DNA of 64,000 nucleotides. Origin: Candidatus Omnitrophota bacterium. GTDB taxonomy: Bacteria > Omnitrophota > Gorgyraeia > Zapsychrales > JANLHA01. The notes under the pieces were generated by a model. It was given only the letters and a program-made list of their open reading frames with translations. It searched no databases and was not told the origin of the DNA. Of this stretch, positions 36,936-43,433 are shown one piece after another. The DNA lies in the NCBI GenBank assembly GCA_022711395.1, contig JAKLFA010000004.1:204996-268995 (forward strand). The letters are read 5' to 3'. The position numbers and the translations under genes were made by a program. How positions within the stretch are numbered: the first letter of the stretch is position 1; each line of letters begins with the position of its first letter.

Positions 36936-37619
36936 CTACTTACCGCCACCTTCCGCCTTGCCTTCCCCTTCATCCGCTTTCGCCTTCTCCTTCTTGATCA
37001 CTTCAGGCTCCGCCCCCGGCTCGACCGCCGCAGGCGTTTCCTCTTCACGGCGAGGAGGGATAACTGAGAACACGATCGCCTCCGGGTCATGTTTGGTCTC
37101 AACCCCTTTAGGCAACTGAATGTTGGAAACACAGATCACTTGGCCGATCTCAAGCGCGGCAACATCGACCTCGATCTGCTCGGGAATATCCATCGGCAAA
37201 CAAACGATATCGAGTTCCCAAAGAATGTGTTCCAAAGAACCTTTGTCACGCTTCACCCCGATAGGTTCGCCCTTGGGCGCTAACGGAACGCGGACTTCGA
37301 TCTTTTCTTTCAAAGAAATGCGTTTAAAATCAACATGGATGATCTGGTCCGTGACATAATCATGCTGTTCTTCTTTAACGATCGCGGAATAATCACGAAC
37401 TCCCTTTTCACCCTCTTTGACATTGAGATGGAACAAAACCTCGCCATGATGCTGACGTCGCACGCGCTCATAGGTCCTGCGATCCACCTGTACCGGAGTC
37501 GGCTCCTGGTCCCCTCCATAAACGATCCCGGGGATCACGTCCCCTGTGCGCCGAAGGCCTTTTACCTTTTGGCCGCCGACTTCACTGCGAATTTGCACAT
37601 CAATTTTAACTTCTTCCAT
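36936..37619 (-). CDS. rplY: 50S ribosomal protein L25 / general stress protein Ctc
   Basis: L25 N-terminal domain plus Ctc-type C-terminal domain and a Lys/Glu/Ala-rich tail. Confidence 0.85.
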   Translation of the reverse strand: MEEVKIDVQIRSEVGGQKVKGLRRTGDVIPGIVYGGDQEPTPVQVDRRTYERVRRQHHGEVLFHLNVKEGEKGVRDYSAIVKEEQHDYVTDQIIHVDFKRISLKEKIEVRVPLAPKGEPIGVKRDKGSLEHILWELDIVCLPMDIPEQIEVDVAALEIGQVICVSNIQLPKGVETKHDPEAIVFSVIPPRREEETPAAVEPGAEPEVIKKEKAKADEGEGKAEGGGK

Positions 37620-37664: not shown

Positions 37665-38609
37665 TTACTCAAACAAACAACTGATCGAAGCCTCATTATG
37701 AATACGATAAATCGCGTCCGCCAATAGAGGAGCGATCGTCACCGTAGTGATCTTCGGATTCGATTTTGTCTTTCGAAATGGGATGCTGTCTGTAATGACC
37801 ACTTCTTTCAGCACGGAACAATCCTGAATACGCTGAAGCGCGCTTCCCGAAAGAACACCGTGGCTGATCGCCGCATAGACCTCAAGAGCACCTTTCTTCC
37901 GCAAGCTTTCTGCTGCTTCAACCAAAGACCCTGCGGTGGCAACAATATCATCAACGATGACCGCGATCTTGTTTCGCACAGAACCCAAAATATGCATGAC
38001 CTCGGTCTTTTCAGGGCTCATCCGGCGTTTATCAACGACCGCAAGCGACGCCCCCAGCCGTTTCGAATAAGCGCGGGCCATTTTGATGCTCCCCACATCC
38101 GGAGAGACCACCACCAATTTTCGCCGGTCAAGGTTCTTGGTGCGGAAATAGTCACACAAAGAATGGATCGCATAAAGATGATCCACTGGAATATCAAAGA
38201 AGCCCTGAATCTGGCTGGCGTGAAGGTCCATGGTCAAAACACGGTTGGCCCCCGCCCCATGAATAAGATTAGCGACCAACTTCGCGGTGATCGGAACGCG
38301 TGGTTTATCCTTGCGGTCCTGACGGGCATATCCGTAATACGGCAATACCGCGGTGATCCGTTTAGCGGAAGCCCGGCGCGCCGCGTCGATCAGGACCAAA
38401 AGTTCCATCAGGTTATCATTGGCCGGCGGACAGGTCGGCTGAACAATGAACGTGTCCTTCCCCCGGATATTTTCCAAGATCTGAACGCGGATCTCTCCTT
38501 CGCTAAAACGGCCGACCAGAGCCTTCGTCAAAGAAATATGAAGATTCGTGCAGATCCTTTTTCCCAGCTCCGGATTTGCATTGCCGACCACAATAGCTAA
38601 ACCATCCAT
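37665..38609 (-). CDS. prs: ribose-phosphate pyrophosphokinase
   Basis: PRPP synthetase motifs including the PRPP-binding site VDDIVATAGS. Confidence 0.9.
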   Translation of the reverse strand: MDGLAIVVGNANPELGKRICTNLHISLTKALVGRFSEGEIRVQILENIRGKDTFIVQPTCPPANDNLMELLVLIDAARRASAKRITAVLPYYGYARQDRKDKPRVPITAKLVANLIHGAGANRVLTMDLHASQIQGFFDIPVDHLYAIHSLCDYFRTKNLDRRKLVVVSPDVGSIKMARAYSKRLGASLAVVDKRRMSPEKTEVMHILGSVRNKIAVIVDDIVATAGSLVEAAESLRKKGALEVYAAISHGVLSGSALQRIQDCSVLKEVVITDSIPFRKTKSNPKITTVTIAPLLADAIYRIHNEASISCLFE

Positions 38610-38626: not shown

Positions 38627-39886
38627 TTATATTTTTCGCTTTCCGATGATCTTCCCAGGAACGCCGACCATCACGTGATGATCAGGAAGCGTCTTTTCCT
38701 TGGCCACGACGCATCCCGCACCGGTGACCGCCTGTTTTCCGATCTTCACCGGAGCCACCAAAATAGAATCTGATCCGATAAAAGCCCCATCCCCCAAACG
38801 GGTCAGGTGCTTTTCCTTCCCGTCAAAATTCGCGGTCACGACGCCAGCACCGATATTGACCTCGCGGCCAGCGACCGTGTCCCCCAAAAAGCTGAAATGC
38901 TTCATAAAGCTCTGGTCACCGATCGTGGAACGCGACACCTCTGTAAAATTACCGATCTCCACGTTATTGCCGATCTTGGTTCCTGGGCGGAAATGGGCGA
39001 ACGGCCCGATCACGCAATCTTTGCCGATCACAACGTTCTCTTCGATCACCGTGAACGGTTTGATCAGCGTTCCCCTGCCAATCTTGACATCGGCATCGAT
39101 GAAGGTCGTGGCTGGATCCACGATCGAGATCCCGTCCAACATAAACTTTTGCAGGATCCTTTGCCGCAAAACAGCTGCCGCACTGGCCAATTCTGCCTGT
39201 GTATTGATCCCCCAGCCTTCTTGAGGGCTGTCCGTTTCCATCGTTTCAATTTTCAAATTGCGCGCCGCCATGATCTCAACAACGTCTGTCAGATAAAATT
39301 CCTTCTTCTTGGGGTTCATTTTAACCAGCGGTAATGTTTTTAAAAGCGATTCATTCTTAAAACAATACACCCCGACATTGATCTCTAAAATGGACCGTTC
39401 GGACTCCAAGAGGTCTTTGTCCTCCCGGATAGCGATCGCTTGGCCATCCGTCGTGCGAAGGATCCGTCCATACCCCGAAGGATTTCCCACCACCGCTGTC
39501 AAGACCGTACAGCTGGCCCCGGTCTGACGGTGTTTCTTCACCAAGGCCTTCAGCGTTTCCGCCTTCAACAACGGCGTGTCTCCGCACAGGACAAGAACAT
39601 CTCCTCTAAAATCTTTCAAAAACCCTTCGACGCGCCTGACCGCATCCGCCGTCCCCAAAAGCTCCTTTTGAAGGACCGGCTCAACGCCTTCTCCCAAAAT
39701 CTTTTGCACTTTCTCAGCCTCATGGCCTACCACAACATACGATGTCAAAGAACCAGCCGACTGGACGGCCTTAAGCACATAGGACAACATCGGACGGCCG
39801 CATACGGGATGAAGGACCTTCGGCAGATCAGACTTCATCCGCGTCCCTTTTCCTGCCGCCAAAATGATCGCCCTTAATTCTTTCAT
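38627..39886 (-). CDS. glmU: bifunctional GlcNAc-1-P uridyltransferase / GlcN-1-P acetyltransferase
   Basis: ILAAGKGTRMKS nucleotidyltransferase motif and a C-terminal hexapeptide-repeat domain. Confidence 0.85.
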   Translation of the reverse strand: MKELRAIILAAGKGTRMKSDLPKVLHPVCGRPMLSYVLKAVQSAGSLTSYVVVGHEAEKVQKILGEGVEPVLQKELLGTADAVRRVEGFLKDFRGDVLVLCGDTPLLKAETLKALVKKHRQTGASCTVLTAVVGNPSGYGRILRTTDGQAIAIREDKDLLESERSILEINVGVYCFKNESLLKTLPLVKMNPKKKEFYLTDVVEIMAARNLKIETMETDSPQEGWGINTQAELASAAAVLRQRILQKFMLDGISIVDPATTFIDADVKIGRGTLIKPFTVIEENVVIGKDCVIGPFAHFRPGTKIGNNVEIGNFTEVSRSTIGDQSFMKHFSFLGDTVAGREVNIGAGVVTANFDGKEKHLTRLGDGAFIGSDSILVAPVKIGKQAVTGAGCVVAKEKTLPDHHVMVGVPGKIIGKRKI

Positions 39887-39908
39887 TTTAAAAAACTGAG
39901 TCGAAATA

Positions 39909-39979
39909 CTGCCCGGCCTGGATTCGAACCAGGAATGCGAGATCCAAATTCTCGAGTGTTACCATTACACTACCAGGCA
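39909..39979 (-). tRNA. tRNA-Gln (anticodon UUG)
   Basis: Manual cloverleaf fold: 7-bp acceptor stem (U1:A72, as in E. coli tRNA-Gln), D-arm GTGT/ACAC, anticodon stem CGAGA/TCTCG with loop ATTTGGA, T-arm CCTGG-TTCGAAT-CCAGG, discriminator G. Confidence 0.8.
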
Positions 39980-40013
39980 AAAACTCTTGCCTTTTTTAAA
40001 CGGTTCGTTCGCT

Positions 40014-40391
40014 CTATTTGTCTGCGGGATTTTCGGCCTCATAGGCCTTTAGCACTTCGGACTGTAAATAATCTCGGAACTCCTGAGTGATCGGATGAGC
40101 AATATCCCGATGTTCTGCCTTTGCATCACGGGCCAAGTCCTCTTCCGACGCCGGCTTTAGTTCCGCCCCGCATTGATTACAATATTTGCTCCCGACTTCA
40201 TTCTTAAAGCTGCACCTAGGACAAGGGGTTTTCATCTTCCGTGACGGCATGGCAATGAACATTCCGGTCGAGCCCTGGATAATCTTGATATTGCGGATCA
40301 CAAATGCCCCATCAAAGGTCACCGTGGCATAGGCCTTAAGCTTCTTATCCTGTCCTTCTTTCGAAAAAACGCGGACTTCCGTAATCTTCAT
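40014..40391 (-). CDS. spoVG: SpoVG-family protein with an internal C4 zinc-ribbon insertion
   Basis: SpoVG core on both sides (MKITEVRVF...GMFIAMPSRK and ...RDIAHPITQEFRDYL). Interrupted by CPRCSFKNEVGSKYCNQCG plus an acidic linker. Confidence 0.75.
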   Translation of the reverse strand: MKITEVRVFSKEGQDKKLKAYATVTFDGAFVIRNIKIIQGSTGMFIAMPSRKMKTPCPRCSFKNEVGSKYCNQCGAELKPASEEDLARDAKAEHRDIAHPITQEFRDYLQSEVLKAYEAENPADK

Positions 40392-40403
40392 CAGGAGCCT
40401 CCT

Positions 40404-41354
40404 TTAAAGAGTTCGTACGGCAAAAACCTGACTATAGTACTTGCTTAAAATACTCCGCCACTTTTCAGCCTCCGCTTTGGATGCCATCAATCCAAATAAC
40501 GAGGGGCCGCTTCCAGAGAACGAAACTCCTTGTAATCCCAACGCTTTTAAGCGTTCTTTAATGTCCGCCAGTCTTGGACAGACTGAAATAATCCCTTGTT
40601 CCAAATCATTGGAAAGAAGATCCCTAGACTTATTAATATCTTTTTCCAATAAAGAATGGATAAGGATATTAGCATTATCGGATGTCTTTGTCAACCTTTC
40701 GATTTTTTTAGCGGTTCCAGCCCGAAAATGCCTCTTTTTGCCATAAACAGAGCCGGAATTTCTGTTAAAAACCGAAATACTGGTCACTTCCAAATTCAAG
40801 GCCCCATACACCTTTGGGGTCGGCATTTTGATCTTAGGAACCACCAAAACGTGCCATATCTTTTGCCTTAAAGACACCGGCCGGATACGCTCCCCGCGCC
40901 GCTCGCCAATGGCCCAATTTACATCCCAAATAAAAAACGGCACATCACTGCCGATGCGGGCTGCACAGTCCAAAAGTTGTTTGCGGGATAAGCGAAGATT
41001 CCATAACCGGTTCAAGGCAAAAAGCGTTGTCGCCGCATTACTGGACCCCCCAGCCAGACCAGCCGCCACAGGAATATTTTTTTTGATCCTGACCTCAACA
41101 CCCTTGGTCACACCACAATATTGCTGCAAAAGAGACGCCGCTTTGTGAACAAGGTTCTGGCTTGTGCACGGCACGCCGGGGTGATCACAAAGTATGCGGA
41201 TCTCCTGCGAAGGAAGAATTCGAAAATGCATCTGATCACAGAGGCTGATACGCTCAAAAAGCGTGTGGATATTGTGAAACCCATCTGCCCGTCTGTTGAT
41301 CACTTTTAAGATGAGATTGACTTTAGCTGGCGAGTATAACTGTAACGCGTTCAT
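40404..41354 (-). CDS. ispE: 4-diphosphocytidyl-2-C-methyl-D-erythritol kinase
   Basis: GHMP kinase with PAKVNLILKV N-terminus and PVAAGLAGGSSNAA motif. Confidence 0.85.
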   Translation of the reverse strand: MNALQLYSPAKVNLILKVINRRADGFHNIHTLFERISLCDQMHFRILPSQEIRILCDHPGVPCTSQNLVHKAASLLQQYCGVTKGVEVRIKKNIPVAAGLAGGSSNAATTLFALNRLWNLRLSRKQLLDCAARIGSDVPFFIWDVNWAIGERRGERIRPVSLRQKIWHVLVVPKIKMPTPKVYGALNLEVTSISVFNRNSGSVYGKKRHFRAGTAKKIERLTKTSDNANILIHSLLEKDINKSRDLLSNDLEQGIISVCPRLADIKERLKALGLQGVSFSGSGPSLFGLMASKAEAEKWRSILSKYYSQVFAVRTL

Positions 41355-42349
41355 AATGTCGGCAAAGGCTTATTATCTTCTAATTTGATTGCATCAGGGC
41401 CCTGGGGATCTCCTTCCTGAAAAACACCTAACGCTCGCTGCCAATATTCATCGGCCTTGGCTGAATCCCCCATTGCATGGTACACCTGAGAAATATGCTT
41501 ATAAATTTCCGGGTCTTCCAGAACATTCAAGGCTTTCAGCAGATACTCCAAGGCCTTTTGATGATCGCCCTGCTTGAAATAGACCCACCCTAAACTATCA
41601 AGATACGCGCCGTTCTGGGGATCGATTAAAAGAGCCTGCTCGATCATGACCTTCGCTTCATCAAGCTTAACCCCTTTCTCGGCGTATAAATACCCCAAAG
41701 AATTCAAACAACTGTCATTGGCCGGATCATATTGCAGCGTCATTTCGAACAGTTCCATGGCCTTCTGTTCATTCTTGGTCTCAAGATAGAGCGCTCCCAG
41801 AAGGAACATCACGTCCGAATTGTCCGGCTCCAAAGACAGGACCGCCTCAAACTGCTGAATGGCCTTGTCATATTCTTTCTGCGAATAATACAACTGCGCC
41901 AGATACCCGTAAATCTCGACGTTTTCCGGCTGCGCCGCAACAAAAGAGCTCAGGATCGCTTCATACTGTTTGGCTGCCTGATCATAATCTTTCTGGGTTG
42001 AATAAATCAACGCCAGCAGATAGCGCGCCTGGACATTATCCTTGTCGAACTCTAACGCTTTGGTCAGGTCATCAATGGCCTTCTGAAGCTTGCCGAGCCG
42101 CGCATAATCAGCCCCAAGACGAAGGCGGACAGCATAATTATCCCCGTAACCGACAGACTTTTGAAATTCCTCGATCGCTTTATCGGTCTCCCCATAAAGG
42201 TCATAAATGATCCCCATCGCATACAACGCTAAACTTTTGGCCTTGGCTTCCTGGTCTTCCAGCGCCCAGACCGATGGACCAAATGCCAACCCCATAGCCC
42301 ATACGATCAAACCGATCACGATGATTTTGAAAAGCCGATGAGTGACCAT
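41351..42349 (-). CDS. exported/membrane-anchored TPR-repeat protein
   Basis: N-terminal hydrophobic segment followed by tandem 34-residue TPR-like repeats. Confidence 0.65.
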   Translation of the reverse strand: MVTHRLFKIIVIGLIVWAMGLAFGPSVWALEDQEAKAKSLALYAMGIIYDLYGETDKAIEEFQKSVGYGDNYAVRLRLGADYARLGKLQKAIDDLTKALEFDKDNVQARYLLALIYSTQKDYDQAAKQYEAILSSFVAAQPENVEIYGYLAQLYYSQKEYDKAIQQFEAVLSLEPDNSDVMFLLGALYLETKNEQKAMELFEMTLQYDPANDSCLNSLGYLYAEKGVKLDEAKVMIEQALLIDPQNGAYLDSLGWVYFKQGDHQKALEYLLKALNVLEDPEIYKHISQVYHAMGDSAKADEYWQRALGVFQEGDPQGPDAIKLEDNKPLPTL

Positions 42350-42557: not shown

Positions 42558-43433
42558 TTAAAAGATGATTTTGTTTAACGAATATTCGATAATTCCCTGT
42601 GCGCCGGCCGTTTTCAGCGCCGGGATCATGCTTCGCACTTTACTTTCATGGATCACGGTCTCGACAGCCAGCCAGCCTTCCTGGCTTAAATGCGAGATCG
42701 TGGGGTTTTGCAAGGACGTAAGCTGCTTCAAGACCTTTTCGAGGTTCTTTTCTTCAACGTTCATTTTCAATCCGACCATCCCGTCAGCGTCGATCGCTCC
42801 TTTTAATAACATCGTGATCTGGTCCATCTTGTTCTTTTTCCAAGCGTCTTTGGCCGACTGACGATTAGCTATAAACTGTGTCGTGGATTCGCAGATCGTA
42901 GAGACGATCCGTAGTTTGTTCGCCCGCAAACTGCTCCCTGTTTCGGTCAATTCGACCACCGCGTCCACCAGCCCTGAGGCGACCTTCGCCTCGGTGGCAC
43001 CCCAACTGAACTCCACATCCGCTTTGACATTGTTTTCTTTCAAATACTGTTTCGTAACATTCACGAGCTCCGTAGCGATCCGTTTTCCCTCCAAATCCTT
43101 GACGGATTTGATCTTGGAATCCTCCGGAACGGCCAAAACCCAGCGGACCTTAACTGCTGACTGTTTGGCATAAACCAAATCCGCAAGCGGAAGGACCTTC
43201 GAACTGTTTTCAAGGGTCCAGTCCGCCCCTGTGATCCCGCAGTCCAGAACGCCATCTTCCACATAACGAGAAATCTCCTGGGCCCTCAAAAGGACAGGCT
43301 CGATCTCAGCATCATCAATAGAAGGAAAATACGACCGGCCAGAAATATAGATCTTGAATCCCGCCCGCTCAAAAACCTTGAACGTCGCCTCCTGCAAGCT
43401 TCCTTTTGGCAAGCCGAGTTTTAGTGTCCCCAT
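42558..43433 (-). CDS. hisG: ATP phosphoribosyltransferase, long form with C-terminal regulatory domain
   Basis: HisG N-terminal sequence at ~290 aa. No other his genes adjacent. Confidence 0.85.

Follow-up and report, generated by a model that had tools for sequence, protein, structure and literature searches.

A SpoVG ortholog of Omnitrophota with an ancient, putative Cys4 zinc ribbon next to its DNA-binding residues

The 64,000-nucleotide stretch of Candidatus Omnitrophota DNA analyzed here (contig JAKLFA010000004.1; referred to below as the window) carries a gene that, with near certainty, encodes a SpoVG protein with a substantial insertion in its conserved core. The insertion, a putative zinc ribbon of the Cys4 type followed by a linker, begins next to the residues that have been shown to be indispensable to DNA binding by SpoVG; it is ancient and common to the Omnitrophota and Planctomycetota, and the protein with this insertion is orthologous to canonical SpoVG rather than an extra paralog. 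The insert as such has already been published; what is added here is its occurrence in Omnitrophota, its identity as a Cys4-type ribbon, and its place beside the DNA-binding residues. The overall explanation that we favor is an orthologous SpoVG whose nucleic-acid-binding face might be extended by the ancient ribbon, and we consider the chances of this explanation to be about even. The gene and the parts of its product are laid out as follows.

40014..40391, minus strand: SpoVG gene with the putative zinc ribbon, 125 codons and a stop codon (open reading frame list)
40398..40403, minus strand: Shine-Dalgarno sequence AGGAGG, 6 nucleotides before the spoVG ATG (read from the sequence)
40236..40391, minus strand: N-terminal SpoVG core, residues 1-52 (beta1-beta4), from the translation; aligns to residues 4-54 of the 2i9x chain
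40158..40232, minus strand: putative zinc ribbon, residues 54-78 (K54-L78, KTPCPRCSFKNEVGSKYCNQCGAEL), from the translation and the Cys pattern
40113..40157, minus strand: variable linker, residues 79-93 (K79-E93, KPASEEDLARDAKAE), from the translation; brings the chain back to the core
40017..40112, minus strand: C-terminal SpoVG core, residues 94-125, from the translation; aligns to residues 57-85 of the 2i9x chain

The reading frame runs uninterrupted from its ATG start through a product of 125 amino acids, and the AGGAGG that precedes it directly follows the stop codon of ispE (40404-40406). Residues 1-118 are matched by the Pfam SpoVG profile (PF04026; E=5.5e-30; 103.8 bits against a gathering threshold of 29.6), a match that takes in profile positions 1-81/82, and the NCBIfam SpoVG equivalog NF009749 scores 94.6 bits, below its cut-off of 108, in two stretches that are split by the insert. 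The window protein is 100% identical to a "SpoVG family protein" from a Candidatus Omnitrophota metagenome-assembled genome (P0001). A plus-strand open reading frame of 48 amino acids (40186-40332) that overlaps spoVG was dismissed as a shadow of the conserved gene.

The solved structures of the B. subtilis (2IA9) and S. epidermidis (2I9X, 2I9Z) SpoVG proteins align with the window protein in two blocks, in which query residues 1-52 pair with residues 4-54 of the chain and query residues 91-119 with its residues 57-85, and the insert is present in none of these structures. Where the canonical protein reads AMPSKR-TPDGEF-RDIAHPI, the window protein reads AMPSRK-(42 residues)-RDIAHPI, and 42 residues in place of 6 amount to a net gain of 36 amino acids. 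Canonical SpoVG proteins (PF04026), the DNA/RNA-binding regulators of Firmicutes and Borrelia, thus make a turn of 4-6 residues at the position that is occupied here by 42 residues with a Cys4 ribbon. A preliminary description of this gene, made from the sequence alone, had proposed a C4 zinc-ribbon-type insertion inside the SpoVG fold that separates, by about 40 residues, two conserved segments normally only a few residues apart; both statements are borne out by the Pfam match, the two-block alignment and the measured distances. Its Cys spacing of CPRC-x13-CNQC needs correction, as the motif is C57-P-R-C60, x10, C71-N-Q-C74.

These four cysteines, the only ones in the protein, are the putative metal ligands. 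Pfam zinc-ribbon profiles match residues 57-79, all below threshold (DZR, 24.4 bits against 27.3; Zn_Ribbon_1, 22.2 against 25), as does the RanBP-type profile (PF00641; 18.4 against 27); in a diverse alignment, each of the 44 members with the insert matches the DZR profile at E<=0.01, and hits to PF13240 and PF12773 are precomputed for many homologues. Together with the Cys pattern, these matches suggest that the insert is a Cys4 zinc ribbon. Its spacing, C-x2-C-x3-N-x6-C-x2-C, is identical to that of RanBP2-type/NZF fingers (PF00641), whose consensus is W-x-C-x2-4-C-x3-N-x6-C-x2-C. The conserved Trp that precedes the first Cys of the RanBP2-type finger is, however, missing from the ribbon, which has T55-P56 at these variable positions, and, in contrast to RanBP2-type, Zn_Ribbon_1 and DZR (PF13240, PF12773) modules placed terminally or in tandem, the ribbon is inserted within a different domain.

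A structure model of the monomer was built on a 150-sequence alignment; a model based on 40 close homologues left beta5 (93-97) unresolved. The model shows the SpoVG fold, a beta-sheet with a C-terminal helix, and an unchanged core. Its N-terminal core, with a predicted local distance difference test (pLDDT) score of 91-97, ends in AMPS-R51-K52, and the C-terminal core comprises beta5 (HRD; strand 94-96 in the model), the AHP motif, and an alpha-helix spanning residues 103-120. The ribbon is predicted to form two short hairpins (pLDDT 86-88); the least confident region is the linker, with a pLDDT of 56 for block 81-90 and a short helix predicted at 83-91. When superposed on the fingers of Nup153, RanBP2 and TRABID, the modelled ribbon deviates by a root-mean-square distance of only 1.0-1.2 Å over 26 residues, but with E values of about 1-3; the RanBP2-type fingers of FUS and RBM5 are likewise among its structural matches.

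Throughout the Omnitrophota and Planctomycetota, SpoVG normally carries the insert. All of the 120 best 90%-identity clusters represent proteins of 121-151 amino acids in which C-x2-C-x10-C-x2-C lies ten residues on from the beginning of AMPSRK; their ribbon is nearly fixed as [FY]KNE[VI]GSK[FY]CNQCG and is followed by about 13 variable residues and then by DAK[AST]EH, which leads into RDIAHP. Searched exhaustively with HMMER, a set of 1.84 billion representatives at 50% identity yielded 4521 proteins at E<=1e-3, and the ribbon sits at the same place in 149 of the best 150 of these. The exception is a protein of 388 amino acids (P0121), whose eight matched SpoVG stretches are tandem repeats; it has a longer, Cys-free hairpin turn and no zinc ribbon. 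Among contigs of GTDB genomes, sampled as one genome per species and inspected at the best loci, the insert is found in all 42 best loci, which bear Omnitrophota or Planctomycetota labels (Pirellulales, Phycisphaerae and Brocadiaceae among them). The SpoVGs encoded at the next 38 loci are short and free of Cys; nearly all come from Spirochaetota, and one is labelled Proteocatella. Looking up 20 divergent representatives returned names from the Omnitrophota and Planctomycetota only, most clusters being without a name. The survey of the insert's distribution that the preliminary description had called for thus identifies it as the standard form in two phyla, and the notion, also raised there, that a Cys-rich segment might be a common SpoVG feature holds for these phyla and fails for the characterized proteins of Firmicutes and Spirochaetes, from which the segment is absent.

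Nine GTDB records with deviating labels (L003, L004, L008, L014, L023-L026, L029: uncultured Planctomycetia/Planctomycetales, a Methanosarcinales archaeon, Vermiphilus sp.) encode an Omnitrophota-type SpoVG (55-68% identity) in the order ispE-spoVG-glmU-prs and cluster inside or next to the Omnitrophota; they are probably mislabelled or misbinned contigs. They were not counted towards a wider distribution of the insert, the genes and the synteny being of the Omnitrophota type.

Within the insert, conservation is uneven. The four cysteines are invariant in all 192 aligned insert-bearing sequences, and the same set retains N64 (182 sequences), G75 (182), an aromatic residue at position 70 (190), and basic residues at positions 59, 63, 67 and 69 (141-165 of the 192); R51 and K52 of the core are kept in 178 and 180 of them, respectively. 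The span from CxxC to CxxC is 18 residues in 305 of 308 sequences, and the mean net charge of the ribbon is +3.3 across these 308 and +2.8 in the close relatives of the window protein. The linker, by contrast, varies among homologues in sequence and in length (10-23 amino acids, mode 15). An acidic stretch, which the preliminary description had counted as part of the variant, is indeed present in the window protein, where residues 79-93 are mostly acidic, but it is not a conserved element of the insert.

Contrary to the assumption that the variant had not been described, Gupta, Bhandari & Naushad 2012 (Front Microbiol 3:327, PMC3444138) reported a signature indel of 32-36 amino acids in SpoVG as specific for Planctomycetes (their Fig. 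A3); they placed this "36 aa insert" within a conserved part of the protein and described it as "not found outside Planctomycetes". It was treated there as a phylogenetic marker only; the words "zinc" and "cysteine" are absent from the paper, and no genomes of OP3/Omnitrophota were included. Among 8 million open papers searched for SpoVG in combination with zinc, zinc ribbon, Planctomycetota or signature indel, this is the only one found to treat the insert. The published indel and the insert of our Planctomycetota sequences (L030-L042, P0127-P0270) share position, length, and the pattern C-x2-C-x2-KN-x6-C-x2-CG. The window insert, with its net 36 amino acids between AMPSRK and RDIAHP, is collinear with them in its four cysteines, K63-N64 and G75. 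The two versions can nevertheless be told apart: in the Omnitrophota form, which has FKNEVGSK[FY] where the Planctomycetota form has HKNHLRAK[FY], the linker is acidic and a long C-terminal tail is usually missing. Since the names attached to the window protein and to its close relatives are those of Omnitrophota, the insert is not restricted to Planctomycetes and the marker is not specific for that phylum.

In a neighbor-joining tree of 79 core columns, calculated without support values, the insert-bearing sequences group together with one exception (L033), and the Omnitrophota form a tight clade beside a grade of Planctomycetota. With its 79 columns, this tree is too short to prove a single origin of the insert, for which the collinearity of the insert sequence itself is the better argument.

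What the ribbon might do is suggested by its position. Jutras et al. 2013 found K50 and R51 of S. aureus SpoVG, and R53 and R54 of the B. burgdorferi protein, each to be essential for DNA binding; the same study attributes the sequence preference of SpoVG to a six-residue stretch of its helix and describes the protein as multimeric. K50-R51 of S. aureus corresponds to the KR of AMPSKR (in the S. epidermidis chain numbering) and to R51-K52 of the window protein, and the ribbon starts four residues past this pair, a placement in keeping with the earlier proposal that the insertion lies where nucleic-acid binding could be affected. In place of the tip of the beta4-beta5 hairpin, the protein has a putative 25-residue Cys4 ribbon and a flexible return linker of about 15 residues; the SpoVG core and the known binding determinants, i.e., R51-K52 and the C-terminal helix, are intact. 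The basic ribbon (mean net charge about +3) would most likely lie on the nucleic-acid-binding face and could add contacts to RNA or DNA, with a changed affinity or target preference as the outcome. That the ribbon serves as an extra nucleic-acid contact module is proposed tentatively, with slightly less than even confidence, from its predicted placement and charge.

Several observations weigh against such a role. The zinc-ribbon scores of the window protein stay under the curated Pfam cut-offs. In its sub-clade, Gly takes the place of Arg at position 67 and the acidic linker has a net charge of about -2, both of which lower the local positive charge. N64, the aromatic residue 70 and G75 are typical structural positions of such fingers and need not touch a ligand. 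The model is that of a monomer while SpoVG is oligomeric, and it gives no firm orientation of the ribbon towards R51/K52. Finally, a biochemical or structural study of an insert-bearing SpoVG was not found in the open literature searched.

In a rather doubtful extension of the proposed contact role, the ribbon might re-target SpoVG, for instance to single-stranded RNA motifs, in the manner of RNA-binding RanBP2-type fingers, and the insertion, as a rare genomic change, would mark a common ancestor of the Omnitrophota and Planctomycetota. Some RanBP2-type fingers, those of FUS and RBM5 among them, bind single-stranded RNA.

The best-conserved residues of the ribbon besides the cysteines can also be read in another way, since N64, the aromatic residue 70 and G75 are the canonical knuckle positions of RanBP2-like and Zn_Ribbon_1 modules. 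The ribbon might accordingly be a purely structural zinc site that rigidifies or stabilizes the long hairpin or an oligomer interface without any contact to a ligand. The unchanged core fold is compatible with this idea; SpoVG forms multimers, so the hairpin tip could sit at an interface. A parallel exists in several bacterial ribosomal proteins (e.g., S14, L31, L33, L36 and, reportedly, S4), which occur in zinc-ribbon-containing and zinc-free forms; as with SpoVG, these are small nucleic-acid-binding proteins with lineage-specific forms that have or lack a Cys4 ribbon and keep their core function, although their ribbon is ancestral and was lost or degenerated, whereas that of SpoVG is a gained insertion. 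Yet the fold does not need an excursion of 36 amino acids where the canonical turn takes 4-6 residues, basic residues are conserved at four exposed ribbon positions over two phyla, and the insertion adjoins the DNA-binding pair; in our view, a purely structural site is therefore unlikely.

The genomic neighborhood bears both on the identity of the gene and on possible partners of its product. The genes that flank spoVG in the window are the following.

40404..41354, minus strand: ispE, upstream neighbor (open reading frame list)
39908..39980, minus strand: tRNA-Gln(TTG), between spoVG and glmU (ARAGORN; Rfam tRNA, 58.7 bits)
38627-39886, minus strand: glmU, downstream (open reading frame list)
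37665-38609, minus strand: prs, downstream (open reading frame list)
36936-37619, minus strand: ribosomal protein L25/Ctc gene, downstream (open reading frame list)

ispE lies immediately upstream of spoVG at every one of the 42 loci with the insert and at the majority of the canonical Spirochaetota loci; the order glmU, prs, L25 after spoVG recurs in those Omnitrophota loci that reach far enough downstream. The ispE...spoVG-gcaD-prs-ctc region of B. subtilis is the same neighborhood, and no paralogous, zinc-free copy of spoVG was seen in the loci examined. The zinc-ribbon protein is the ortholog of canonical SpoVG and not an additional paralog because the ispE-spoVG-glmU-prs-L25 neighborhood is conserved.

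Further features of the locus concern its transcription and gene order. The tRNA-Gln(TTG) gene lies 33 nucleotides past the spoVG stop codon and 21 nucleotides ahead of the glmU start, and seems to share the orientation of the operon; apart from this tRNA, promoter, terminator and Rfam scans revealed nothing specific to spoVG. A sigma-70-like site on the minus strand (40666-40694; TTGACA, a 17-nucleotide spacer, TAATAT, with TG) falls within the 3' portion of ispE, some 275 nucleotides upstream of the spoVG start, and could, as judged by its match to the consensus, be an internal spoVG promoter. Upstream of ispE lie a gene for a tetratricopeptide-repeat (TPR) protein with an N-terminal hydrophobic segment (41351-42349, minus strand) and hisG (42558-43433, minus strand), and the order hisG-TPR-ispE-spoVG is kept in the closest Omnitrophota loci (L001-L003, L008).

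C-terminal tails of 40 to more than 300 amino acids, rich in E/P/R/A/G/D, are present in 133 of 269 insert-bearing SpoVGs, mostly of the Planctomycetota type (P0127-P0270); 109 of the 133 terminate in F[GSD]xG[ILVF] preceded by a run of acidic residues (e.g., ...DDDxxFGAGIL). Four Omnitrophota-like representatives (P0122-P0125) have a D-I-[ER]-L terminus; the window protein is without a long C-terminal tail. A binding fold joined by a disordered linker to an acidic-hydrophobic tip recalls the layout of bacterial SSB.

In many planctomycete homologues, the long disordered tail with its acidic-hydrophobic tip suggests a hub protein, and the nearest structural look-alikes of the ribbon, the NZF and RanBP2 fingers, mostly bind proteins, ubiquitin or Ran; Cys4 sites, moreover, can be oxidized. 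The ribbon might hence recruit a protein partner, for instance RNA polymerase, a component of the ribosome or an RNase; alternatively, it might act as a redox- or zinc-sensitive switch of SpoVG binding. The loci, however, show no conserved partner gene and place spoVG in the same housekeeping operon as its canonical counterpart, the matches to known structures cover few residues and have little statistical strength (E about 1-3), and the window protein lacks such a tail; we regard a partner or sensor function as quite improbable. Virtually no weight attaches to an assembly or frameshift artefact, against which the preliminary description had cautioned, to a fusion, or to cysteines that fall into this pattern by chance in a degenerate loop, because the open reading frame is continuous, the identical protein is found on 6 contigs from several sources, independent assemblies contain the same insert, and the cysteines are invariant in the 120 clusters, the 149 of 150 representatives and the 42 GTDB loci.

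How the widespread global regulator SpoVG recognizes nucleic acids is still poorly understood. Without overturning the current understanding of either SpoVG recognition or the marker, the variant described here is of interest in both respects. A published marker is corrected, the SpoVG insert being common to the Omnitrophota as well, which bears on the relationship of the two phyla; and a natural SpoVG with a putative zinc module beside two residues essential for binding offers a ready system for probing the binding face of this protein family.
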